A stretch of DNA of 64,000 nt from a virus (Duplodnaviria; Caudoviricetes): the IMG/VR virus record IMGVR_UViG_3300020577_010124, positions 96,001 through 160,000 of that record. One strand, given 5' to 3'. Positions 37,736-54,354 of the stretch are shown here, piece by piece. Under the pieces are notes generated by a model, which searched no databases, was not told where the DNA came from, and saw only the letters and a program-made list of their open reading frames with translations. Made by a program: the position numbers and the translations under genes. The first letter of the stretch is position 1. The number at the start of each line of letters is the position of its first letter.

Positions 37736-39301
37736 ATGGCTATAAACGATCTTGACTCTCAAGAAAAACTATTACATCTTCTTATCAACAATGAAGGATT
37801 GATTCCTGAGTTTGTGACAGGACAGTTTGGACCTGATTACTTCGAAGATAAGCACAGGCCAATGATCTATGGAATAGAAGAATGTCATCAAGCAGGTGAG
37901 AAATTTACAGATAGCTATTATCTAGATTTTATTGCTAGAAGCGTAGCGAATGGCGACTATAGAAAATGGACAGGAAGTGAAGTCGTAAGTTCTAAGTTCG
38001 CTCAACAAACTGAAAATCGAAACTATCAACTTCTCGCTAATCTAGACAAAGTTGATCCTGCGGACTTCCCATTGGTTTGCCGTAAGGTTCGAGAACATTA
38101 CATAAAGAAACAAGCAACCAAGATACTTGAAAAGTTTAATACCAAACAAAACAAAGATTTTATTGCAGCAACTCAAGAGCTTGCTGACAATATGACGGTT
38201 TTGATTTCTAGCGCTGCTGATAACAGCAATGCTACTTGGTCCAATGTTGACGAATACGGTGACGACTGGTATAGAGAGCTAGAGGACGAGAGTAAGAATC
38301 CGAAGAAGGTTCTCAATACAGGAATCAAGCCATTTGACGAGACAATGCCGAACGGACTGGACATTGGCTCTTTAACTCTCATTGTTGCGGATGTTGGTGG
38401 TTTCAAATCAGCAACCATGATTAACATGGCGTTGAATGTTTGCAAACAAAGCAACGAGGATGTTCTATACGTTTCTCTTGAAATGCCTAAGAAGCGTTTG
38501 ATGCAGAGACTGATATCCAGAGAAGCCGAGGTTGATTCAAAGAAGCTTGGACAACCGCATCTTCTTACTGAAGACGATAAAGCCAAAATCAAAAAGGCTA
38601 TGGAAGACTTCAGGATTATCAAGTCCAAGTTTGCCATACTTGACGCTCAAGAAAGAATGACCGTATCCAAGATACGAGCAGAACTTGAAAAGCGCAGACA
38701 TTTCTTCAGACCAAGAGTTGTTGTTATTGACTATATCTCGATTCTTAGTCCTGAGCCTTGGTATCAAAAGCTAGCAGAGCATAGCTGGTACGGCCAGATG
38801 TGCAAAGACCTTCGTTCTCTTGGTAGAAAGATGGGCTTTGCTGTTCTATCCGCCGTTCAGCTTAATCGAGAGGCTATCAAATCTCTTCGTAATCAAAAAG
38901 AAGGTAAGCAGTCTGTTGGCTCTGACGCTCTTAGGGGTTCTCATGACTTTTCAGCAGACGCAGATAACATCTTTGTTCAAGTTCCTCATCCTGAGCAAAT
39001 GAAAGAGAAGATGTATTTATTCTGCGTAAAGTCTAGATATGGTTCTCCTATGTTTGGTCCGCACAACAATCAATCTAAGGCAACGCTGGACGTTTATCCG
39101 AGCATTGGTAAGATAACAGCATATGTTGACGCTACATGGTCGGTTGAGAACGATCCTATTGCCTCTGTTCTAATGAAGAAAGGGGACGCAATTCCAGATC
39201 CAGCTTTGGACTTGGACTTTGATACGACTCCTCCGCCTGCTCCAAATAAGCCAAAACCTAAACCAAAGCAAAAGAATGAAATTGACGATCTTGGATTCTA
39301 A
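37736..39301 (+). CDS. dnaB: Replicative DNA helicase, DnaB family
   Basis: TGIKPFD, ADVGGFKS, YVSLEM, VVIDYI, LSAVQLNR, GS...ADAD, KSRYG. Confidence 0.92.
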   Translation: MAINDLDSQEKLLHLLINNEGLIPEFVTGQFGPDYFEDKHRPMIYGIEECHQAGEKFTDSYYLDFIARSVANGDYRKWTGSEVVSSKFAQQTENRNYQLLANLDKVDPADFPLVCRKVREHYIKKQATKILEKFNTKQNKDFIAATQELADNMTVLISSAADNSNATWSNVDEYGDDWYRELEDESKNPKKVLNTGIKPFDETMPNGLDIGSLTLIVADVGGFKSATMINMALNVCKQSNEDVLYVSLEMPKKRLMQRLISREAEVDSKKLGQPHLLTEDDKAKIKKAMEDFRIIKSKFAILDAQERMTVSKIRAELEKRRHFFRPRVVVIDYISILSPEPWYQKLAEHSWYGQMCKDLRSLGRKMGFAVLSAVQLNREAIKSLRNQKEGKQSVGSDALRGSHDFSADADNIFVQVPHPEQMKEKMYLFCVKSRYGSPMFGPHNNQSKATLDVYPSIGKITAYVDATWSVENDPIASVLMKKGDAIPDPALDLDFDTTPPPAPNKPKPKPKQKNEIDDLGF

Positions 39302-39942
39302 TGAGCATTATTTTAGACACAATCATTAAGGGAAACAAGATAACGGATTATCTTATTTCTAAGAACGTAAGATGGGCAAACCATGATGGCGGTAGATATC
39401 GTTATCGCTGTCCTCTTCCTTCTCATAGAAATGATTCTACTCCGTCATTCTTTGTTTATGACAAAGCAGATAGACAAGATTTTTATTGCTATGGCTGTAA
39501 AAATGCTGGTTCGATTATACAGCTTATTTCTTGTTACGAACAGATTCCAATAAAGGATGTTATTCAGAAGCTCTCAGAGGGCATGAATATCAACATCAAT
39601 GACATTCTTGAATCTTTGGTACGAGAGATAATTGTAAAATCCACAACCCCAACGCAACAGGGCAAAGAAGAGGCTATGTTAGCTTCTTCTTTGTTCATAA
39701 GTGTTCATATGCATGATTTTCTTGTAAAGGTAGGCTTTGATAAACAGGAATGTGACATCGCAGAGAAAGTCTTTGCGATAACCGATAGCTTGGTTTCCAT
39801 AGACAACCTTGACGAACTAGAAAAGCTTTCTATAACGCTTCCGTCTAAAACCAAGTATAGATATCAACGATTTGTTGAGCTAAAGAAAAAAGAAGAGATT
39901 CAGAACGCGAAAGATTTCAAGAGTTTCATAAATGAGTTTTGA
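39301..39942 (+). CDS. DNA primase zinc-binding (CHC2) subunit; N-terminal half of a split DnaG
   Basis: CPLPSH..DSTPSF.V......FYCYGC...G.II; no TOPRIM domain. Confidence 0.85.
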   Translation: MSIILDTIIKGNKITDYLISKNVRWANHDGGRYRYRCPLPSHRNDSTPSFFVYDKADRQDFYCYGCKNAGSIIQLISCYEQIPIKDVIQKLSEGMNININDILESLVREIIVKSTTPTQQGKEEAMLASSLFISVHMHDFLVKVGFDKQECDIAEKVFAITDSLVSIDNLDELEKLSITLPSKTKYRYQRFVELKKKEEIQNAKDFKSFINEF

Positions 39943-43953: not shown

Positions 43954-44234
43954 TGCCACTATATGAGTATGAAGTTCTTGATAATCAAGGCAAGCCAACT
44001 GGCGAAGTAGTCGAGTTCTTGCAGAAAATGTCAGACGCTAAATATGAAAAACATCCTGAAGACGGAAGACCATTACGATATACTGTTTCAACTCTTGGCA
44101 TGGTTGACGACGGCAGACCTGCTTGGGAACGATGTACTGACGTTCGAGATCATATACGCAGCGCAAAGCCCAAGTATGTAAGTGATACTAAAAAAGGTAT
44201 TCGAGAAAGATACGATCCTAATAAGCACGGATGA
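43953..44234 (+). CDS. FmdB-family regulatory protein (Cys-less variant)
   Basis: MPLYEY...E.LQKMSD....HPE.G..L...VS matches the FmdB N-terminal pattern, with CxxC replaced. Confidence 0.7.
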   Translation: MPLYEYEVLDNQGKPTGEVVEFLQKMSDAKYEKHPEDGRPLRYTVSTLGMVDDGRPAWERCTDVRDHIRSAKPKYVSDTKKGIRERYDPNKHG

Positions 44235-44581
44235 GATACGTCAGGAAACAAATCGTTGTCAAAGTTTTGGCGGACGAGATTATAGAAGATCTCTCTGTTG
44301 TAAAACAGCTTCTTGAAACATTTCAACGTTCTCGAACGGACGCTCATATTAGTTATCGCAAAGATCAATTTGAAACAGCGACTGTTCATGATAGAGTCAG
44401 AATAACGGCTGTTCATGAAAACAGTTTTGACCTGACGGTTATCAATCAAACTCATACAATGAATGTCAAGAAGATTCCAATTGCTGACGTTGATTTTATT
44501 TCAACGACGGTTTCTCCAAATGAAATCTTTGTCAAGAAAAGCGGCATCGTTGAAAAAGGCGACACGCTGGATTTGGCGTGA
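44231..44581 (+). CDS. Hypothetical protein
   Basis: ATGA overlap; ends in TLDLA. Confidence 0.55.
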   Translation: MRYVRKQIVVKVLADEIIEDLSVVKQLLETFQRSRTDAHISYRKDQFETATVHDRVRITAVHENSFDLTVINQTHTMNVKKIPIADVDFISTTVSPNEIFVKKSGIVEKGDTLDLA

Positions 44582-44628
44582 GTTGTGGGTTGCTGTCTGA
44601 AAAAGCCTCTAACGCCGAAAATCTGAGC

Positions 44629-46029
44629 ATGAAGATAACCAACAACGCAGATTTTGTACACTTACATAACCACTCCGAATATTCTCAGTTTGACGGTCTT
44701 AACAAAGTCTCGAACTTTGCCAAGTCAGCTAAAGAAATGGGCTTTAAGGCTCTTGCTTTGACTGACCACGGCAATGTTGGCGGCGCTATCAAGTTCATGC
44801 AGTCTTGTTGGAATAAGGATATCAAGAACTTTGATATCAAACCCATAGTTGGATGCGAGTTCTACCTGTCAAAAGACAGGCATATTCATTTCTCTGAGCG
44901 CAAAGAAGGCTCGAAGATCATCAAAGGTCAGACCGACGAGAAGAAAGGCAATCGTCATCTTGTTCTTATCGCAAAGAACTGGAAGGGTTGGCAGAATCTT
45001 GCTGCTCTCTCTCAACTGAGTTGGACCGAAGGTTTTTATCACAATCCTCGTATTGATTTACCCTTGCTAGCAAAGCATTCAGAAGGGCTTATATGCAATT
45101 CCGCCTGTCTTAGTAGCGTTGTCAACGCAAACCTTCTTCATGATCGTTTTGACGCTGCTAGAGCCGCCGTTGGAATTTTCAAGGATATCTTCAAAGAAGA
45201 CTTTCATCTTGAGGTTATGTATCACGGCATTGACGCTGAGGCGATGATTATTCCAGACATTATCAAGCTTGGCAAGGAAATGAATGTTCCAATCATCGCA
45301 ACGAATGATTGTCATTACTGCTCTAAAGAACAGGGACTATCTCAAGAGTTGTTGATGTGCATGAGTACAAGCAAGTGCTTGCATGATCCAAAGCATCTCA
45401 GGTTCCCATTCCATGAGTTCTATCTAAAGTCGGCAGCAGAGATGTCTCAAATCTTTGGGTCGCATCCTGAAGCTCTGCTTAATACTGTCATGGTTGCAGA
45501 TAAAGTAGATTCAAAGGATATCTATGACAATATGATTTCGGGTATTCGTTTGCCAAGATATAGAATTCCCGCAGGTTTCAACTCTCCCTTTGAGTATATG
45601 GAGCATTTGGCTTGGGAAGGAATGAAGAAGCATAATTGGACAGGTAGCGCTCCTCATGTTGAAAGACTAAAGAGAGAGCTTGCTGACGTAAAGGTTGCTT
45701 GGGATAATAACAAGTACGACTTTGCTACTTATTTCCTTATTGTTCGAGACTACATTCAAGAAGCAAATAATCGAGGCATCCTTACAGGTTGCGGTAGAGG
45801 TTCAGGCTTTGCAAGCGTTCTATTGAGAGTCATAGGCATTACTTATGGTCCAGATCCTTTGCTGTTTGATCTGATTTGGGAACGTTTCCTTGGATTCGAT
45901 GATAAGTATTTCTTGCAAGAAAGCGACTTCTTTGGAGAAGCTGTTGCCGAGAAGGTTGCCGATTCTAATGACGATCTATTCGAAGACAGAGACGTTTCTG
46001 ACGACCTGGGCGGCGTAGATAGATATTGA
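44629..46029 (+). CDS. dnaE: DNA polymerase III alpha, N-terminal piece (PHP domain + first part of palm)
   Basis: FVHLHNHSEYS.FDG, ALTDHG, KPIVGCEFY, HLVLIAKN, PRID, ATNDCHY, YFLIV.DYI, GRGS, WERFL, then an acidic tail and stop. Confidence 0.93.
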   Translation: MKITNNADFVHLHNHSEYSQFDGLNKVSNFAKSAKEMGFKALALTDHGNVGGAIKFMQSCWNKDIKNFDIKPIVGCEFYLSKDRHIHFSERKEGSKIIKGQTDEKKGNRHLVLIAKNWKGWQNLAALSQLSWTEGFYHNPRIDLPLLAKHSEGLICNSACLSSVVNANLLHDRFDAARAAVGIFKDIFKEDFHLEVMYHGIDAEAMIIPDIIKLGKEMNVPIIATNDCHYCSKEQGLSQELLMCMSTSKCLHDPKHLRFPFHEFYLKSAAEMSQIFGSHPEALLNTVMVADKVDSKDIYDNMISGIRLPRYRIPAGFNSPFEYMEHLAWEGMKKHNWTGSAPHVERLKRELADVKVAWDNNKYDFATYFLIVRDYIQEANNRGILTGCGRGSGFASVLLRVIGITYGPDPLLFDLIWERFLGFDDKYFLQESDFFGEAVAEKVADSNDDLFEDRDVSDDLGGVDRY

Positions 46030-46030
46030 T

Positions 46031-46882
46031 ATGGCAGATACGCTCATAAAAAGAGTAGGCGGAAAGGTGAAGATCAGAGAGTGGATCAAGTCCAATCTCC
46101 CTCATCACCAAATCTATTGCGAGCCTTTTGGCGGTAGCTTTGCTGTTGGCTTTATCATGCCAACACCTAATCTTACGTCTTATAGGTTGGTTCTAAACGA
46201 TAGCGATAAGCATGTATGGAACTTGTTTCGAGTTTTGAGGGACTATAGACAAGAGTTTTTGGAGAAGATTGCTGCTAGTCCTTATAGCAGAGAAGACTTT
46301 GATCGATCTGTAGAGTACATTCGTTCTAAAAGAGATTTTGAGAAAGAGAATCCTGTTGACTGGGCGAGAATGTATATCATTTACAATCGACAGTCCATGA
46401 TGGGAAAAGAAGACGGGACATGGGCTATCGCTCGGCAAGGTGAAAACTTCTGTCTTACTTGGGCCTCTATTCCGTCTCTTATCCGAGAAGTAGCAGATTT
46501 CTTCAAGAACGTTTTTGTAGAACGAATGGACTATAAGGAATGCATAGCCAAATGGGACAGTCCTGAAACTCTTTTTTATCTAGACCCTCCATACGAGGGA
46601 GTTGAGAAAGATTTTTATGAAGTCAATAAGAAAGACGGATTTGATCATAAAGGAATGGCCGACCTCCTGAAAACCATTAAGGGAAGCTTTGCTGTATCTT
46701 ACTATGACAGCAAGTATATTCGAGATCTTTATCCTGTTAGCGAAGGCTTCGTAATACATGAAAAGTCTGTTCTTAAACATATGCAGACTACCAAGAAGAA
46801 AGATTCCGTAACAGAGTTGCTTATCGTTCGAGAGAATAGTTGGGCAAAGCAGAATAGTAAAGAACGTTTTTGTTTTGAGTAA
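46031..46882 (+). CDS. DNA adenine methyltransferase (Dam-like)
   Basis: GGK, YCEPFGGS, LND, FYLDPPY, VSYY, ELLI. Confidence 0.9.
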   Translation: MADTLIKRVGGKVKIREWIKSNLPHHQIYCEPFGGSFAVGFIMPTPNLTSYRLVLNDSDKHVWNLFRVLRDYRQEFLEKIAASPYSREDFDRSVEYIRSKRDFEKENPVDWARMYIIYNRQSMMGKEDGTWAIARQGENFCLTWASIPSLIREVADFFKNVFVERMDYKECIAKWDSPETLFYLDPPYEGVEKDFYEVNKKDGFDHKGMADLLKTIKGSFAVSYYDSKYIRDLYPVSEGFVIHEKSVLKHMQTTKKKDSVTELLIVRENSWAKQNSKERFCFE

Positions 46883-46887
46883 ACACT

Positions 46888-47136
46888 ATGGCATATCACG
46901 TTAGTCTGATTAGAAAAGGCGAGTATGGTTGTATTTCTAAGATCCAAGAAGAGCTTGACGAGCTTAAGGATGCAACCTTGCAGAAAAACAAGATAATGGC
47001 TTTGATTGAGCTTTCCGATATGATCGGAGCTATCGAAGGCTTCTTGCAAAGAGAATATCCTTTTATTTCATTAGAAGACCTCAAGAAGATGTCTGACGCA
47101 ACTCGTTCAGCATTTATGGATGGAACAAGAAAATGA
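46888..47136 (+). CDS. Small all-alpha NTP-pyrophosphatase (MazG-like) protein
   Basis: KIQEELDELKDA...IELSD matches the EExxE...ExxD metal-binding pattern of MazG-type folds. Confidence 0.55.
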   Translation: MAYHVSLIRKGEYGCISKIQEELDELKDATLQKNKIMALIELSDMIGAIEGFLQREYPFISLEDLKKMSDATRSAFMDGTRK

Positions 47137-47735
47137 AATGGTTTACGGAGCATAATGATCTTAGAGTTATGGCCGACGCTAGAGACTACTATCTCTATAC
47201 GGAGAAGTATCGTCCTATTGAGGCTCCTTGGATTGTTAGTAAGAAAGCCATAATGATTACGGCTCCTGAAGAATGCGAACCATTTGTTCAGAATGAGTCT
47301 CTTGTTGCTTCGGGCGAGCAATCATTTATGCAGATGATTTTGGATGGGCAACTTAAACGAGGAGCGTACTTTACGATTACCCCTTGTTATAGACCAGCAG
47401 ATGCTGCGAGAAATGACGGATTGCATCTTGCTCAGTTTACAAAGCTTGAACTTATTGATTTCTATGAGAATGTTGAACCTACTCATGAAGATCTTAAGCG
47501 AATGATTGTAGGGGCGAAAAAGTTCATGGAAGATGCTAGAGGGGAAATGCTAGATATCGTGCGAGTTCCCGATTCAGAACATAGAGAATGTTTTACTTTT
47601 GAAAATTACGATATCATGACTGCGGGTCCAGGTGAAATAGAACTTGGTTCATATGGAATCCGACGACATCCCGATATTGGGTATTGGGTGTACGGAACGG
47701 GCGCTGCTCTTCCAAGATTAATGCATGGAGTCTAA
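47133..47735 (+). CDS. Stand-alone class II aminoacyl-tRNA synthetase-like catalytic domain
   Basis: Motif 1-like Y.PIEAP, LVASGEQSF, motif 2 TPCYR...H...FTKLELI, IELGSYG, motif 3 GTGAALPR; no anticodon-binding domain. Confidence 0.75.
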   Translation: MKWFTEHNDLRVMADARDYYLYTEKYRPIEAPWIVSKKAIMITAPEECEPFVQNESLVASGEQSFMQMILDGQLKRGAYFTITPCYRPADAARNDGLHLAQFTKLELIDFYENVEPTHEDLKRMIVGAKKFMEDARGEMLDIVRVPDSEHRECFTFENYDIMTAGPGEIELGSYGIRRHPDIGYWVYGTGAALPRLMHGV

Positions 47736-47740
47736 CGATA

Positions 47741-49726
47741 ATGCCAACTCTACAAGAAATCAAACAAGAACTTTTGGGCTTGGTTAAAGATCCGAGCCTT
47801 CTTCCTCTGTGCGAAGCTGAAATTAAGAAGATGGAATCGACCGAGGGATTGGACGATAAACTCAATCTTGAGAAGTTCTACAGTCTCTATAAGATGTCCA
47901 AGACTCGAAGCGACAATCATAGAAATGTTGTCAACTCATGGCTTGCTTATGCGACTGGAATGGTTACAAAGAAACCAGACGAAGGTTCAACCTTCTTCCC
48001 CAAGCGTCGTGCGTTTGCTAGAAAGAGTCTGCCCGACGTTGATAGCGACTTTGACTATGAGCGTAGAGGCGAAATCTATCAGTATTTGATTGACACGTTT
48101 GGACGAGAATACGTTGGAAATATTGGAACGTATTCAGGTCTAAAAACCAAGTCTTATGTTCGTCGCGCAATAAAGGCGATAGATCCAGAGAAGACATTCT
48201 TCAAAGGATTTGACTTTTGGAAGACAGAAACAAATGCATTAGGTGCTGAGATATTGGATTCACTTCCGCCTCAGTATGGAGCGAAGCTCAAGGTAAAGGA
48301 TGATCAGGGTAATGAACATATTATTGATACTGTTGCTGACGCTGCTAAATACTGTAAGAAATTCTCTTATTACATTACTAAGTATCCCTCTCTTCTTCAA
48401 CACTCTCATAGTATTGAAGGACTACTATCCACTTTTGGAGTCCATGCTGCTGGTATTGTCATATCAAGCGAGCCTCTTGGCAATATAGCGCCTCTTCGTC
48501 AGAGCAAGATTGCGGATAGCGCAACCGAAGAGGGTCCAAAGTATGCTTATGCAACTCAGTTTGAGTATAACGATCTAGAATTCCTAGGTCTAATCAAGTT
48601 CGATATTCTTGCTCTTAGTACGCTCTCTGTCATCTATCGTTGCATGAACATGATTGAGCAGAACTATGGAATCAAGGTCAACATCTACGACCTGCCTCTT
48701 GACGACAAGAAAACCTACGATCTTTACAAGAGCGGCAAACTAACGGGCGTATTCCAATGCGAAGAATACGGAATGCAGAAGACAATGGTAAACATGGGAG
48801 TTGACTCTCTTCATGATATCATGGCTGGAATCGCTTTGTATCGTCCTGGTCCTATGGACTATATTGAAACCTATTGCGCTCGAAAGCATGGCGTAGAGCC
48901 GATTGACTATTTCCATTCTTCGCTAAAGCCCTTGCTTGAGCAGCATCTAAAGAAGACATACGGACTTCCTGTTTATCAAGAACAGATTATGCAAGTATGT
49001 AATGCTGTTGCGGGACTTTCCATTCCTGAAGGTTATGTAGTTATCAAGGCTATTGGTAAGAAAAAGCCTGAGTTGCTACAGAAGTATCGTACTCGTTTTG
49101 TTACTGGCGCAAAAGAAACAAACGGTATCGAGCCAAAGGTTGCGGAAGGCTATTGGGATAAGGTTATTACGCCCTTCGCCGACTACGGATTCAATAAGGC
49201 GCATGCTTGTTGCTATGCATACAACTCATATGCGACGGCGTATTTGAAGGCCAATTATCCTGAAGAGTTTGTTGCTTCCTACTTGAACGTTGAAGTTATT
49301 CGAGCCAACTACGACAAGATTGCTACTCTAGAAAAGATGGCAGACGAAATGAACATTACGATTCTTCCTCGTCACATCAATACTTGTAAGCTTGAATACA
49401 CAATCGCCAAGAGAGCGGACGCTACGAATGGTGTTCCAGGGTCGGAAATCATGCCTTCTATCCGTTGTAAGGGTTTGAGTTTTTCCGCGGCAGAAGAAAT
49501 TGTCAAGCATCAACCATATGCGAGCTTGAAAGAGTTTGCAGAGTTTACGGATACAAAGCTTGTTGATATGAGAGCATTGGAAGCTTTGATTGAGGCAGGT
49601 TTCTTCAAGCCCAAGCAAGGTAGATCACGACCTGCTCAGGATATTCTTGACGAGTTTGAGATGATGAGAGAAGACCTTAAGAAGCTTCGCAAGCGAGGTA
49701 TCGAAGGCGGAAATATGTTTGAGTGA
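47741..49726 (+). CDS. dnaE: DNA polymerase III alpha, C-terminal piece (catalytic palm, thumb, fingers, HhH; no OB fold)
   Basis: SLPDVDSDF, HAAGIVI, IKFDILAL, GVFQCE, ALYRPGP, YQEQIMQ, YGFNKAH, YLKANYP, LEALIEAGFF. Confidence 0.93.
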   Translation: MPTLQEIKQELLGLVKDPSLLPLCEAEIKKMESTEGLDDKLNLEKFYSLYKMSKTRSDNHRNVVNSWLAYATGMVTKKPDEGSTFFPKRRAFARKSLPDVDSDFDYERRGEIYQYLIDTFGREYVGNIGTYSGLKTKSYVRRAIKAIDPEKTFFKGFDFWKTETNALGAEILDSLPPQYGAKLKVKDDQGNEHIIDTVADAAKYCKKFSYYITKYPSLLQHSHSIEGLLSTFGVHAAGIVISSEPLGNIAPLRQSKIADSATEEGPKYAYATQFEYNDLEFLGLIKFDILALSTLSVIYRCMNMIEQNYGIKVNIYDLPLDDKKTYDLYKSGKLTGVFQCEEYGMQKTMVNMGVDSLHDIMAGIALYRPGPMDYIETYCARKHGVEPIDYFHSSLKPLLEQHLKKTYGLPVYQEQIMQVCNAVAGLSIPEGYVVIKAIGKKKPELLQKYRTRFVTGAKETNGIEPKVAEGYWDKVITPFADYGFNKAHACCYAYNSYATAYLKANYPEEFVASYLNVEVIRANYDKIATLEKMADEMNITILPRHINTCKLEYTIAKRADATNGVPGSEIMPSIRCKGLSFSAAEEIVKHQPYASLKEFAEFTDTKLVDMRALEALIEAGFFKPKQGRSRPAQDILDEFEMMREDLKKLRKRGIEGGNMFE

Positions 49727-49785
49727 ACCAATAGCAATCTTTAGTGAGAACGACGATGAAGAAGTCAATAGCGAAAGGTAATCAA

Positions 49786-50106
49786 ATGAGCAATGAAGCA
49801 GAGACTCCAAAAATGAGAAAATCAATCGTCCGTAAGTCTATAACTCGCAAGTACAATACTGCAAAGTTTGAAACTATGGATATCGTAGTAGACCATTCCA
49901 TCGAAGTAGAATGGGACACGATCGAAAATCTTAGAGCAAAGAGCGATAGCGTTACTACGCTTGTAGCCAATGATTTCGAGCAAACAGCTAAGAAAGTCTT
50001 CGAAGATTTCCGTCTAACTTCTACTCCTGCCTCTATGAATGAAGCGGGTCCAGCGAAGCGCGGACTTTCTGCGGAAGAAAAGAAAGACTTTGATAAGCTT
50101 AGTTGA
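49786..50106 (+). CDS. Hypothetical protein
   Basis: ATG at 49786 preceded by GAAAGGT. Confidence 0.55.
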   Translation: MSNEAETPKMRKSIVRKSITRKYNTAKFETMDIVVDHSIEVEWDTIENLRAKSDSVTTLVANDFEQTAKKVFEDFRLTSTPASMNEAGPAKRGLSAEEKKDFDKLS

Positions 50107-50129
50107 AATACAACAATAGGAAGTAGTAA

Positions 50130-51359
50130 ATGTCGCTATCCATAAGTGAGCAGTTGGACTCTATATTTGATGTCCCTAAAAATGGCGCAAATATAAAAGA
50201 AGAAGATACTGATAACAACGATGCAGCTTATGCTGAAGTAGTTGCTACGCATGACAATGCGAGCTTTGATCAAAAAGTCAAGGCGCTAAGCGAGAAGCTG
50301 GCTAAAGACGTTCCCTCGTCGGATGTCCCTAACACTTCAACAGTGGAGGCTTCTTATGTTCAGCCAACCTTTGCCGCCCCAGAACAACCCAAACAATCTA
50401 CCGAAGACGAGTTCCAAACGATACTCTCGCGGTCTGTTCAACCTAAACAGCCTATCGTCGCGCCAGTACAACCCTTGGTGCAAGAACCGATCTTTGATAC
50501 TAAAGATACAAAGCGAGAAGAGCCTGCTAAGAACGATGACACGATACGGAATAACGACAAACCAATTCCTGTCGCTTTGGAAGGAAACGCTGTGAATGAT
50601 GATTCGGTATCCGAGTCAGTTTCGGACGGACCTAGCTCGCCAGTATACAACTTGCAAGTTAACTCAGACGGTTGGTTGCTAACGGCTCCTGCTCCAATGT
50701 ATAGTCACTTCTATACAGAGAAGGCAGCATTCATTCGCCATATCACCGTAAATGGTAAGCCTCTAGAAATAGATAAGTTGACGACTGAGCTTAGAAACTC
50801 AAGCGTTAGCACGAAAGTAGAGCTTACGGATCTGCCAGGAATGGCTGAACGTCTAACGAAGATTCAGGACTTCCTTGATAGAGTTGTTCAAATCAAGGTT
50901 CAGGCAACCAGTCAATGCGCTGCAACAAAAAGAGGCGTTGAGTTGCTTCGAGGGGTTTTGGCTAAGGTTAGCTACGAAAAACCAGCCGCCCGTCAAGACG
51001 GAGTTATTTACGACCATATGCGAGACATTGAGATGTACGCATCAAGAGTCGAAAGCCTTGAGCAGAATGCTAAGGATATATACCACAACTTGTTGGAAGC
51101 GAAAGAAATCCTCAGCCGCAAGATATCTATTGCTATTGAGCTTGTAAAAGAGCAAAATAAGACTGACGGATTGGAGAAGAGTTTCAATAATCTTCCCGAT
51201 AGTTCAAAGAAAACTATGAGCGCTCCTATAGCTACATCTAGTAAGTTGGCGGGCGAAGGATACGACAGGTTGGACGTACAAGAAGCTGTTGTGAAGGCAG
51301 CGGCTCCAAAGCAAGATCGGTCGATAAAAAAATCTGGACAATCTGATTGGATGGACTGA
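50130..51359 (+). CDS. Coiled-coil protein, possibly a UvsY-like recombination mediator, with a long disordered N-terminus
   Basis: Helical C-terminal half ending ...LLEAKEILSRKIS; adjacent to ssb and recA. Function is inferred. Confidence 0.35.
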   Translation: MSLSISEQLDSIFDVPKNGANIKEEDTDNNDAAYAEVVATHDNASFDQKVKALSEKLAKDVPSSDVPNTSTVEASYVQPTFAAPEQPKQSTEDEFQTILSRSVQPKQPIVAPVQPLVQEPIFDTKDTKREEPAKNDDTIRNNDKPIPVALEGNAVNDDSVSESVSDGPSSPVYNLQVNSDGWLLTAPAPMYSHFYTEKAAFIRHITVNGKPLEIDKLTTELRNSSVSTKVELTDLPGMAERLTKIQDFLDRVVQIKVQATSQCAATKRGVELLRGVLAKVSYEKPAARQDGVIYDHMRDIEMYASRVESLEQNAKDIYHNLLEAKEILSRKISIAIELVKEQNKTDGLEKSFNNLPDSSKKTMSAPIATSSKLAGEGYDRLDVQEAVVKAAAPKQDRSIKKSGQSDWMD

Positions 51360-51528: not shown

Positions 51529-52224
51529 ATGGGACAGTTGATTGATTGGGGTAGTGTAGAGCCACAAAAGCCAAGTAAGGGCGGAAGCGGTGGCGGCGGT
51601 AGCGACAAGTTCTTGAAGCTAGAGCCAGGTAAGACGTACCGAGTACGTCCAGTCGGAAAACCATATGTTTTCCATGCTTACTATGTTGCTGCGGCGGACA
51701 ATCCTAAGAAGTTCGCCAGAGCGGTAACGGAAGATCCAGCAAACTGCATAATTCGTCAGAAGTATAACGTTGAGCCAAGAATGCGTTACGCTGTCAATGT
51801 CATTGACCGCGCAGACGGCAAGCTCAAGGTTATGGAAGCGCCTCCATCTGTCTTTGATAAGATCAAGCAATGGGCCAACGCTTCTGGGCAAAACCCAGGC
51901 ACGAATACAGGCGCAGACTTCCAAATCAGCGTAGTCGTTCCTCCTAACGGAGATCGTAAGCGCACTGAGTATCCAACAACTCCAGTTGTTCAGACGCAGT
52001 TTACTGCTGAAGAGCGAGAGATGTTGAATAAGCAAGGTCTATTCAATCTTGAAGAGATCTATGCTGCAACTCCTCAGTCAGAAATCGAAGCTAAGTTGTA
52101 CCCAGGTACTTCTTCAGCAACGGTTACTGTAAAGACCGCTGCGCCGCAAGCTGCGGCTCCCGTTCAGAGCGTAGCTGCAACTGCTGTTGCATCTAAGGCT
52201 TCGAACGACGATCTAGGGTTCTAA
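51529..52224 (+). CDS. Single-stranded DNA-binding protein (gp32-like OB fold)
   Basis: FLKLEPG..Y.VR.VG...RYAVNVIDRADG.LKVME...G.DF.I; Ala-rich linker; acidic-aromatic tail DDLGF; strong AAGGAG RBS; next to recA. Confidence 0.8.
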   Translation: MGQLIDWGSVEPQKPSKGGSGGGGSDKFLKLEPGKTYRVRPVGKPYVFHAYYVAAADNPKKFARAVTEDPANCIIRQKYNVEPRMRYAVNVIDRADGKLKVMEAPPSVFDKIKQWANASGQNPGTNTGADFQISVVVPPNGDRKRTEYPTTPVVQTQFTAEEREMLNKQGLFNLEEIYAATPQSEIEAKLYPGTSSATVTVKTAAPQAAAPVQSVAATAVASKASNDDLGF

Positions 52225-52321: not shown

Positions 52322-53581
52322 ATGGCAAAAAAGAGAGATAATGCATTACTGAACTTCGAAGGTTTTGAGTTTGGTACAGAAGGAAATCCTACAGAGTTTA
52401 TACCTAGCGGTCATCATGCGCTTGACTACATTATCTCAAGCGGATTGCTGCAAAATGAGCTTACCGAAACAGGCGAAATGATCGCCTCGGCAGGAGGCTT
52501 CCCAACTGGTAAGCTTGTCATGATTTATGGCGGCGAGGCAGGAGGAAAGTCGTCTCTAGCATATAAGATATGCGGCTCTGCTCAACGAATGGGCAAGATT
52601 CCTATTTGGGTTGATGTTGAAAACTCTTTCAGCGAAACGCTTGCAAAGATTAACGGCGTTGATCTCAAGAGATTGGGTCGTAAGAATATGTACGACAAGA
52701 ATCAACCTGACAAAGTATTCGACGGCGAATATGCTCTTGATTGCGTTATGGACGCATGCAAGAGAGGCGCAGGCGTTGTTGTGCTAGACTCAATTGGTAG
52801 TCTTGTTCCTCGTTACGTTATGGAAAATCCAGCAGACAAAGATACAATGGCAGCATTGGCTCGTTTGCTTGGAAAGACTGTTAACAAGATTAGTAGCTTG
52901 GCAGCAGCAAACGGAACGTTGGTTATCTTCATCAATCAACTTCGTATTACTCCTGGCGCTATGTTCAAAGACCCAGAAGGATACCCAGGCGGAAAAGCAA
53001 TTGCTCACGCTTGTTCTGTTATCTTGAAACTAAATAAGGTCAACGCCAAAGACGGTTACACCTACATTGAAGACGACGAGGGCAAGCCAAAGATGATTGC
53101 TGGTTCTGCTAACGTATTCGTTCAGAAGAATCGTTTTGCAGCGCCTCACTTCGGCGGCATTCGTATCCCGATCTACTACGAAAACTACTTCCCTGAGATT
53201 CAAGATACTGCATTCGAGGTTGGTCGCCAGACAAAGACGATTTCCGTTCGTAATGGAGTTTACACTTGGGGCAAGATCAAGGTTGAGGGAAAGAAAGCGT
53301 TTATTGCAGAGATCGTGGCTAAGAACAAGGTTGGAGAGCTTGTAGCCGAAATCAAAGAAGACGCAAAGAAAGACGAAGCAATCATCCTTCCGACCGAGAT
53401 TTTGAACTACGAGAAGCATGTTGCCTTTGTTAATCAGAATAAAGATAAGCTTGAGAAGAGTAAGCAGTCCAAAGAGCAGAAGAAGTCTAAAGACGAAGAA
53501 GTTGCCGAAGCAATAGGCGAAGAAGATACTACGCCTAACATTGATGTTTCTGATGAAGTCCCTGCAAACGTAGAGCTATGA
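52322..53581 (+). CDS. recA: RecA/UvsX recombinase
   Basis: GGFPTGK...IYGGEAGGKS, WVDVE, VVVLDSI, IFINQLR, PGGKA, KNRFAAP. Confidence 0.93.
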   Translation: MAKKRDNALLNFEGFEFGTEGNPTEFIPSGHHALDYIISSGLLQNELTETGEMIASAGGFPTGKLVMIYGGEAGGKSSLAYKICGSAQRMGKIPIWVDVENSFSETLAKINGVDLKRLGRKNMYDKNQPDKVFDGEYALDCVMDACKRGAGVVVLDSIGSLVPRYVMENPADKDTMAALARLLGKTVNKISSLAAANGTLVIFINQLRITPGAMFKDPEGYPGGKAIAHACSVILKLNKVNAKDGYTYIEDDEGKPKMIAGSANVFVQKNRFAAPHFGGIRIPIYYENYFPEIQDTAFEVGRQTKTISVRNGVYTWGKIKVEGKKAFIAEIVAKNKVGELVAEIKEDAKKDEAIILPTEILNYEKHVAFVNQNKDKLEKSKQSKEQKKSKDEEVAEAIGEEDTTPNIDVSDEVPANVEL

Positions 53582-54354
53582 TAAGCCATTTTGCTGAAGT
53601 AGAACGAGTAGAAATAACTGAGCTATCGCAGCAAACGTTGTGGAATGAGCAGTCAGATGATGTAGCAGAAGCTCTTCGATATTGTCGAGAGGAACGTAAG
53701 CTTTCGGACGACGTTATTAAAAAGTTCCGATTTGGTTACTTTCCTCAAAGACTAAAAAAAGCTGGGCATGACTGGGCTGGAAGGCTCATCATGCCTTTGT
53801 ATGACCCGTATGGAAAACTTGTCGTTCTTACGTCTAGAGATTTTAGATGTAAGGATAAAATGGGGATGCCTCATCTTCATGAAGAGTTTGACAAGAAAAT
53901 GTTCTTGTATGGTGTTGACGTTGCAAAGCCCAACATTATACGCTGGCAAAAAGTCATAATCGTTGAAGGTCAATTCGATACCGCATATTCGCATACAAGA
54001 GGATTTGACGTTACCGTTGGTATTCTTGGTAGCGCATTTTCCATGTACCATGTTTGCGTCTTGGCTCGCTATTGCAGCGAGTTCTTTCTTGTATTCGACG
54101 CAGACGAGTCGGGCTACAGAAACCTAGCAAGGTCAATACGCATGTATAAAACATACGGATTGGACTCCTTCGGCATTCGCTTTGTGCCTGTTTTGCTTCC
54201 GAAGCATAAAGATCCCGATGAGTTCTTACAAAAAGAAACCAAAGAGCAATACACCGCACTTCTTACCGAAGCTAAGAATAAAACCGTCGAACTAGGAACT
54301 ACAGCCTACTACGACCTTCTAGTTAAAAACAATCCCCATATTGAGGAAAAGTAA
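53578..54354 (+). CDS. DNA primase catalytic (TOPRIM) subunit; C-terminal half of a split DnaG
   Basis: F.FGY.P, GRLIMPL.D..G..V....R, LYG, IIVEGQFD, FDADESG, KDPDEF; no Zn finger. Confidence 0.88.
   Translation: MISHFAEVERVEITELSQQTLWNEQSDDVAEALRYCREERKLSDDVIKKFRFGYFPQRLKKAGHDWAGRLIMPLYDPYGKLVVLTSRDFRCKDKMGMPHLHEEFDKKMFLYGVDVAKPNIIRWQKVIIVEGQFDTAYSHTRGFDVTVGILGSAFSMYHVCVLARYCSEFFLVFDADESGYRNLARSIRMYKTYGLDSFGIRFVPVLLPKHKDPDEFLQKETKEQYTALLTEAKNKTVELGTTAYYDLLVKNNPHIEEK

Follow-up and report, generated by a model that had tools for sequence, protein, structure and literature searches.

A DnaE-type polymerase divided between two genes, with a duplicated palm segment at the break, in very large aquatic phages

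DNA polymerases of the C family are the replicases of bacteria and are drug targets, and to our knowledge their palm has always been studied as one chain. Intein-free breaks are familiar from family B polymerases, namely gp43A/gp43B of T4-related phages and PolB of Methanothermobacter, whose parts assemble non-covalently and, in the phages, have inserted genes between them. We know of no duplicated segment at these breaks, and these enzymes differ from the one described here in polymerase family and fold. Within the C family, the closest precedent comes from group 2.2 jumbo phages, whose minimal Pol III alpha is split without an intein into an N-terminal NTP (nucleoside triphosphate)-binding and a C-terminal Mg-/template-binding unit; the two units have been proposed to restore a single enzyme together (Iyer et al. 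2021, PMC7824862). A dnaE gene in two pieces with a split intein has also been described, with another gene between the pieces in the fractured genes of marine metagenomes (PMC2677866). Here we describe a dnaE gene pair, dnaE-N and dnaE-C, in a stretch of 64,000 nucleotides (the window) comprising bases 96001-160000 of the 170.5 kb IMG/VR virus record IMGVR_UViG_3300020577_010124. CheckV rates this record as 34% complete, which makes it part of the genome of a very large phage.

We propose that the two genes encode one C-family replicative polymerase, an obligate heterodimer with a composite active site that forms without splicing, and we give this reading a probability of roughly three in four. 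Like the single-chain enzymes with an active PHP domain, Mycobacterium tuberculosis DnaE1 and Thermus aquaticus Pol III alpha, the pair has the order PHP, palm, thumb, fingers and helix-hairpin-helix (HhH) domain, with the nine PHP ligands, GRGS, ERFL, DxD and K.D all present. Polymerase and 3'-5' exonuclease activity are predicted from these features. Unlike these enzymes, the phage protein consists of two polypeptides, has an insert of ~105 amino acids with a duplicated helix-ERFL segment before the catalytic strand, and ends at the internal clamp-motif position without the OB (oligonucleotide/oligosaccharide-binding) fold or the tau-binding C-terminus. As in the split Pol III of group 2.2 phages, the break lies between the NTP-binding (GRGS/ERFL) and Mg-binding (DxD) palm subdomains, a likeness that we draw from the published description and not from the sequences. 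That enzyme is minimal, with neither PHP nor any other domain; its halves are encoded far apart, and the phages have a family B polymerase beside it (PMC7824862). In contrast, the present enzyme is full-size with a PHP domain, its halves lie 12 nt to 2.9 kb apart and share a duplicated, putative docking segment, and two complete relatives contain no PF00136 match. With the cyanobacterial split-intein DnaE and the fractured genes (PMC2677866) it shares a dnaE in two pieces and, with the latter, intervening genes, but the break point is another one and the two products overlap. There are no Hint halves and no homing endonuclease at the break, which excludes a split-intein dnaE. Full-text literature searches of non-exhaustive scope found no published description of this split; one study notes only PF07733 as the mark of a cluster of the largest marine jumbo phages.

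The two genes and their doubly covered segment

The dnaE-N gene probably starts at the ATG at 44629, as in its relatives, and stops with TGA at 46027-46029 (features are collected in Table 1). Pfam identifies a PHP domain (PF02811, E=7.5e-42) followed by positions 1-97 of the DNA_pol3_alpha model, and the product aligns to residues 2-408 of M. tuberculosis DnaE1, for which a structure is solved, ending directly after FERFLNP. A first-pass annotation of the window had judged that the PHP domain keeps its metal ligands. All nine positions (H13, H15, D22, H47, E77, H110, C160, D227 and H229) are indeed present in this alignment, and they are invariant across 59 N-half relatives. The same is true of G387 and G389-G393 (GRGSG) and of W417 and R419-L421 (W.RFL), which form the most conserved stretch of the N-half. 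WERFL occupies residues 417-421 (nt 45877-45891), and R419 corresponds to E. coli R390. In the GFDDKYF..DFF element that follows, F423 and D433 are invariant and D424 and F434 nearly invariant. As had been read at first pass, the chain stops shortly after WERFL with an acidic tail, 45 residues on, ending in ...DDLGGVDRY. This tail was found in 84 of 110 N-halves, with the exact GGVDRY end in 70, and is absent from fused and short-tail forms. Both the DnaB-like helicase (37736-39301) and the single-stranded DNA-binding protein (SSB; 51529-52224) encoded in the window end in ..DDLGF, and the three tails may bind a common replisome partner.

The dnaE-C gene starts with ATG at 47741, with GGAG 11 nt upstream. 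Pfam assigns its product DNA_pol3_alpha positions 68-260, the finger domain (PF17657, E=3.5e-50) and HHH_6 (PF14579, E=1.4e-8). The catalytic PDVDSD was placed in this gene by the first-pass annotation and is found there, from residue 98 (nt 48032) onward. D99, D101, D103, K286 and D288 are invariant in 60 C-halves; K286 and D288 we take to be the equivalents of E. coli K553 and D555. N62, P79, R90 and R94 in the preceding leader are likewise invariant, and G59 and R89 nearly so. HHH_6 is the last domain and the structural end lies at about residue 925 of E. coli alpha, confirming that the gene ends after the HhH without an OB fold. Neither an OB fold nor a tau-binding domain was found in dnaE-C, which stops at position 943 of 1190 of the PHROG 405 profile. 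The missing OB fold or a clamp was also sought in the downstream open reading frames (ORFs) of 120 and 409 amino acids, with no family match; the 409-residue product has low-confidence helical atlas matches only. The C-terminus of dnaE-C superimposes on E. coli alpha 924-927, beside the clamp motif QADMF (920-924), and the terminal GGNMFE is a candidate motif for binding of the sliding clamp. A similar peptide, RFCFE (46868-46879), ends the Dam methylase encoded between the two dnaE genes. A search for the beta clamp (PF00712) in the record and four relatives found none, and the phage may use the clamp of its host or a divergent clamp of its own.

Residues 63-138 of dnaE-C align without a gap to M. 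tuberculosis DnaE1 379-454, T. aquaticus 427-502 and E. coli 367-440. M. tuberculosis residues 379-408, which comprise the post-GS helix, GIT.IDP and LLFERFLNP, are matched by both genes, so that 30 residues are doubly covered. Both genes also match positions 68-97 of Pfam DNA_pol3_alpha, 25-31 positions are doubly covered in two full-length NCBIfam DnaE models, and on phage genes for a single-chain DnaE the tblastn matches of the two halves share 29-75 residues. On this alignment evidence the duplication is real, because both genes align to the same 30 residues of a solved DnaE. We refer to the segment in dnaE-N as copy A and to that in dnaE-C (residues 63-97) as copy B.

The first-pass annotation had likened the whole leader of dnaE-C, ~95 residues without a GRGS, to the palm segment. 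The lack of GRGS was confirmed and the likeness stands for copy B, while for residues 1-62 its register was reproduced without significance. HHalign comparison of a profile of 128 leaders with 74 canonical phage DnaE segments gave a probability of 97.4% (E=1e-11, 94 columns), a score that takes in the catalytic motif and copy B. The register is that of the first reading, with G59 of the leader facing the first Gly of GRGS and N62 facing its Ser. Residues 1-64 alone gave P=0.014 against canonical DnaE, with 0.019 for a reversed control, and P=0.048 when compared with the N-half of the same phage; the whole leader gave P=0.11 against that N-half. When leaders alone were searched against Pfam there was no DnaE match for the window or for the relatives L001, L004, L006, L007 and L008, and a weak one for L010 (E=0.036). 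In one relative HMMER aligns the leader to Pfam throughout its length (residues 6-136 to profile 2-136), but only if the catalytic motif is included. The duplicate is thus proven by alignment for only ~35 of the ~95 leader residues; for residues 1-62 the compatible length, helix order and register are suggestive of homology to the palm. The copy is degenerate, as had been said, but it is strongly conserved, with the four invariant leader residues named above.

Conservation of the break and order of events

Contigs from sequencing runs of three studies (riverine, wastewater and one unlabelled) contain this stretch. One contig of another study spans it whole, and further contigs bridge each junction. 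An assembly error is excluded, since independent contigs of other studies cross both junctions and related assemblies have the same layout. The break point is shared by related phages: hundreds of clusters with intact motifs were recovered from aquatic megaphages. Stand-alone N-halves form >120 clusters and C-halves >130 clusters, the latter at 46-72% identity and both halves together spanning 46-79%. PDxDxDF lies at residues ~90-108 in all C-halves and PHP is present in none; their contigs, from JGI, ENA, Tara and NCBI, reach 505 kb. Against the closest relative, L001 (70-79% identical), dS (synonymous divergence) is saturated, giving no ratio for most segments, and dN (non-synonymous divergence) is 0.16-0.23. 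Both halves also occur in two genomes that are complete, with terminal repeats, and measure 498,568 and 460,978 bp; no Pfam family A or B polymerase (no PF00136 match) was found in either. The two-gene DnaE is probably the only phage-encoded polymerase of these ~0.5 Mb aquatic phages.

The inter-gene gap of the window measures 1,711 nt and is filled by three tightly packed plus-strand ORFs. In L004 and L005 the halves are 14 nt apart and in L006 12 nt. The order of the replication genes around the pair is conserved throughout, and elsewhere the gap contains cassettes of 1.6-2.9 kb: Dam-type cassettes of varying composition in the window, L001, L087 and L088, an unrelated cassette with a class I SAM (S-adenosylmethionine)-dependent-like methyltransferase (Pfam Methyltransf_23/11) in L089 and L010, and two more, of five and seven small ORFs, in L007 and L008. 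The split was not caused by the three intervening genes. These make up one of at least five different cassettes that entered an already existing gap between the halves, because some relatives have their halves 12-14 nt apart, others carry different cassettes and others are fused.

Single fused genes encode 1,106 amino acids in L003 and 1,089 in L090. In three fused relatives (P0120, P0135 and P0139; 1,089-1,106 amino acids) the whole ~105-residue leader is internal, with 127-130 residues from ERFL to PDxD, and in fused P0147 and P0148 only copy B, the duplicated helix, follows WERFL after a short spacer. At the junction, fused L003 matches its split sister L006 codon by codon, the sole differences being a stop, 12 nt and a start. 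The origin proposed at first pass, a partial duplication and then fission, is supported in that fused relatives carry the duplicate internally and split forms align with them colinearly through the junction. P0153, a partial sequence that falls within the clade, has lost almost all of the insert. It comes from a 3.6 kb contig (NCBI MBT6049598.1) whose DnaE is labelled as that of a Candidatus Scalindua metagenome-assembled genome and is nested in the phage clade; a phage contig has probably been placed in a bacterial bin.

A tree of the region that follows the catalytic motif, with its root placed on canonical phage DnaE, groups the sequences that bear the insert in a single clade (SH-aLRT 100). 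Fused forms are scattered among split ones such that seven state changes are required, and monophyly of the four fused main-clade forms is rejected (approximately unbiased (AU) test, p=2e-6). On this tree, fission and fusion took place several times. The insert would have arisen in a single-chain ancestor. A later stop and start codon in its linker would have separated the chains, a step repeated or reversed several times, and the resulting intergenic gap would have become a landing site for unrelated gene cassettes, in the window a Dam methylase, a phrog_6408 gene and a class II synthetase-like gene.

A modelled composite active site and its rivals

We modelled a complex of the N-half with residues 1-500 of the C-half, using alignments that we made ourselves, in three runs and with three controls. 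The ipSAE score was 0.86 in the three runs against 0.01 for the best control; the mark applied is reached by 58 of 80 solved complexes and by 2 of 110 mismatched pairs. Agreement of contacts between runs was at least 82%, partner pLDDT (predicted local distance difference test) was at least 83, and ~420 contacts were formed. The heterodimer suggested at first pass thus passes its controls as a model, a result that shows likeness to solved single-chain DnaE and not proof of binding, and that may draw on memory of those structures. The modelled interface includes, in the N-half, the GS loop (384-395), the WERFL-GFDDKYF element (413-436, with 418-436 within it) and palm helices 352-382, and in the C-half, leader residues 30-64 and residues 88-105 around the catalytic strand.

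When modelled in isolation, the C-half matches E. coli alpha from ~393 to ~925 (Z 26-28). This match to DnaE begins only at residue ~90, and residues 90-94 are disordered (pLDDT <50). The model of a fused relative (pLDDT 91.5) superimposes on E. coli alpha over 879 of 910 residues (Z 43.5) and on canonical DnaE structures with Z 41-45. As this is a nearly complete canonical fold, the insert appears as an addition to it. In the fused model the GF... element and the RRVF segment, the equivalent of C-half residues 90-94, are both strands, which hints at strand pairing across the subunit boundary. Copy A rather than the leader copy would sit beside the catalytic strand, because copy A is covalently continuous with GRGS and the match of the isolated C-half starts at ~90.

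In the mechanism that we propose, the N-half would supply the PHP proofreading exonuclease and the NTP-binding half of the palm, that is, the strand, the GRGS loop, the helix and the WERFL arginine. The C-half would supply the metal-binding strand (D99, D101), K286, D288, the thumb, the fingers, the HhH/beta-binding domain and a clamp-motif-like peptide. The cut falls in the flexible linker of a clade-specific insert of ~105 residues between ERFL and the catalytic strand, and the C-terminal third of this insert is the degenerate duplicate of the helix-ERFL segment. In the models this insert packs on the palm helices of the N-half, and it is most likely a docking module that makes the break tolerable. 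A physical heterodimer, composite catalysis, the docking role of the insert and clamp binding are what we infer from these alignments and models.

The first-pass annotation had offered two functional alternatives, assembly of the active site in trans and a division into a polymerase subunit and a PHP subunit. In the second, the C-half would be a self-sufficient polymerase by means of its own degenerate copy of the N-terminal palm (the G59..N62 loop, helix 66-75 and R89/R90), and the N-half would be a separate PHP proofreading subunit whose palm fragment only docks. Three observations weigh against assembly in trans. Where the GS motif has its serine, copy B has an invariant Asn, and it has conserved arginines in the place of ERFL (N62, R90 and R94 are invariant, G59 and R89 nearly so), which leaves room for a self-sufficient C-half. 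By themselves, leader residues 1-62 show no significant homology to the palm. The loss of nearly the whole insert in P0153 means that the insert is dispensable for the single-chain enzyme. Copy B also follows the canonical segment in order and without a gap as far as the catalytic strand, and in one relative the Pfam alignment covers the whole leader (profile 2-136). However, copy B has lost the GS motif itself, the leader fails to superimpose on the canonical palm in the isolated C-half model, and the canonical fold of the fused model is almost fully explained without the insert. The top conservation of GRGSG and W.RFL in the N-half would moreover be unexpected for a mere docking piece. With these motifs invariant in the N-half, the acidic residues and the lysine all in the C-half and a complex model that passes its controls, assembly in trans fits better, and we regard separate polymerase and proofreading subunits as quite improbable.

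Post-transcriptional or post-translational joining of the halves, through a split intein, an intron or ribosomal bypass, would bring to mind the split-intein DnaE of cyanobacteria and the environmental fractured genes (PMC2677866), and inteins do occur elsewhere in these phage DnaE genes (P0046, P0056, L087). At the break, however, neither half has a Pfam Hint or intein match, in line with the absence of intein termini noted at first pass, and the N-half tail contains no Cys. The gap, in which no room for an intron had been seen, is packed with ORFs that are conserved protein genes, and no Rfam family, introns included, matches 44000-50200 at E<=1. The sequences flanking the break are DnaE-like or clade-conserved, and the halves overlap in canonical register rather than abutting. 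Such joining is extremely improbable. Hardly more credible is a recent break by a mobile cassette, a pseudogene or replication by another polymerase, which the three unrelated genes between the halves might suggest: the same break recurs with intact motifs in hundreds of clusters, also where there is no cassette, and the two complete genomes have no other Pfam-detectable polymerase. A recent, non-conserved disruption is contradicted by the >120 clusters per half with invariant motifs. Bearing on origin only, the doubled segment may have come from recombination of two different dnaE genes that overlapped at the junction, and not from tandem duplication. Copy B is closer to the general DnaE consensus (S.LAYA.G.T...P) than to its own copy A, and the HHalign values for the leader (P=0.11 against its own N-half, E=1e-11 against canonical DnaE) point the same way. 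Yet the E=1e-11 alignment includes the catalytic motif and the N-half comparison does not, unequal constraint on the copies after tandem duplication explains the asymmetry equally well, and the N- and C-halves of the clade are similarly conserved and syntenic. We consider a recombinational origin unlikely.

An extension of the heterodimer reading is put forward tentatively, with more doubt than belief. The duplicated pseudo-palm segment might have pre-adapted a single-chain DnaE to fission, giving a catalytic centre made from two freely exchangeable subunits, with a break repeatedly made and healed and serving as a landing pad for accessory genes. The GGVDRY tail and N62 would then belong to a regulatory or hub-binding device, which might control exchange of the proofreading subunit or, together with the DDLGF tails of DnaB and SSB, replisome tethering. 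We know of no counterpart of such a device in any cellular Pol III.

Inserted genes, neighbourhood and implications

The ORFs between the halves of the window encode a Dam methylase, a phrog_6408 protein and a phrog_4806 protein, and no homing endonuclease is among them. The phrog_4806 product (P0005) has no sequence match in PDB. Its gene is overlapped by the phrog_6408 gene by ATGA, and L001 has two tandem phrog_4806 paralogues (6444-8014). An ORF of ~175-205 codons that is not present in the window directly precedes Dam in L001 (5067-5684), L087 (4585-5148) and L088 (3791-4318). It has no family match in these three relatives and could be a restriction partner of the methylase. One wastewater contig (run X4) links 46022 to 46691, skipping 668 nt that include most of the Dam gene. 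The shorter flank of this junction is just 34 nt, and the contig may derive from a strain whose cassette differs. True inteins (LAGLIDADG or Hint) lie at other positions of the N- or C-half in L087 (2037-4574), P0046, P0056, P0067, P0122, P0134, P0140, P0141, P0150 and P0169; inteins thus invade the dnaE genes of these phages but are not used at the break.

Every gene of the replication module around the dnaE pair is on the plus strand. A DnaB-like helicase, several methyltransferases and small ORFs lie 5' of the pair, and two ORFs without assignment, SSB, a RecA/UvsX-like recombinase, a Toprim primase part and a Cas4-like nuclease lie 3' of it. The primase appears to be divided too, with a separate Toprim gene 3' of RecA and a DnaG zinc-ribbon gene that adjoins DnaB in relatives. 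Megablast of the dnaE region against the phage collection gave no match; the nearest deposited phages have ~30-38% protein identity and a single-chain DnaE. Promoter-like matches in 44000-50300 are in modest excess (20 against 11.8 ± 3.5 in shuffles), terminator-like sites there are at chance level, and no internal promoter or terminator could be assigned.

Table 1. Coordinates of features of the dnaE region (window positions unless a relative is named)
Feature	Position	Strand	Basis
dnaE-N, 466 amino acids: PHP exonuclease domain, N-terminal palm (NTP-binding subdomain), acidic tail	44629..46029	+	Pfam PHP and DNA_pol3_alpha 1-97
PHP domain, nine metal ligands	44659..45225	+	Pfam; alignment to M. 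tuberculosis DnaE1; invariant in alignment A1
GRGS (G389-S392), GS motif of Pol-beta-like nucleotidyltransferase fold	45793..45804	+	invariant in 59 N-halves
Copy A of duplicated segment: post-GS helix, GIT..DP, WERFL	45814..45891	+	aligns to M. tuberculosis 379-408
GFDDKYF..DFF element, last conserved part of N-half	45892..45936	+	conservation; modelled interface; strand in fused model
Variable 30-residue acidic tail with conserved C-terminal ..DDLGGVDRY	45937..46026	+	tail census of N-halves
Cassette gene 1: Dam-family N6-adenine DNA methyltransferase	46031..46882	+	Pfam MethyltransfD12, phrog_56, TIGR00571
Cassette gene 2: 82-residue phrog_6408 protein, weak HisE/MazG-like match	46888..47136	+	PHROG/profile searches
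Cassette gene 3: 200-residue phrog_4806 protein, annotated histidyl-tRNA-synthetase-like	47133..47735	+	PHROG match
dnaE-C, 661 amino acids: leader, catalytic palm, thumb, fingers, HhH/beta-binding domain	47741..49726	+	Pfam; E. coli alpha model alignment; >130 clusters
Leader residues 1-62, three helices, clade-specific module	47741..47926	+	model helices 4-13, 18-33, 42-53
Copy B of duplicated segment, residues 63-97, no GRGS upstream	47927..48031	+	gapless to M. tuberculosis 379-413, T. aquaticus 427-461, E. coli 367-399
PDVDSDF, residues 98-104, catalytic aspartates D99 and D101	48032..48052	+	invariant; aligned to E. coli D401, D403
K286-F-D288: triphosphate-binding Lys and third catalytic Asp	48596..48604	+	invariant in alignment A2
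C-terminal GGNMFE, candidate sliding-clamp-binding motif	49706..49723	+	F660 nearly invariant; structural superposition
Divided primase	39301-39942 and 53578-54354; L006 1461-2132 and 13894-14571

A widespread, natural and intein-free cut between the NTP-binding and metal-binding halves of the palm would mean that the active site of a C-family polymerase can be assembled from two proteins. The coexistence of fused, adjacent and cassette-separated variants offers a ready system for the study of how a composite polymerase active site is put together. The same system bears on how gene fission comes to be tolerated, with duplication first and the break afterwards, and on how breaks in essential genes turn into insertion hot spots. 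For annotation, two genes called 'DNA polymerase III alpha' in aquatic phages of ~0.5 Mb would represent one enzyme.

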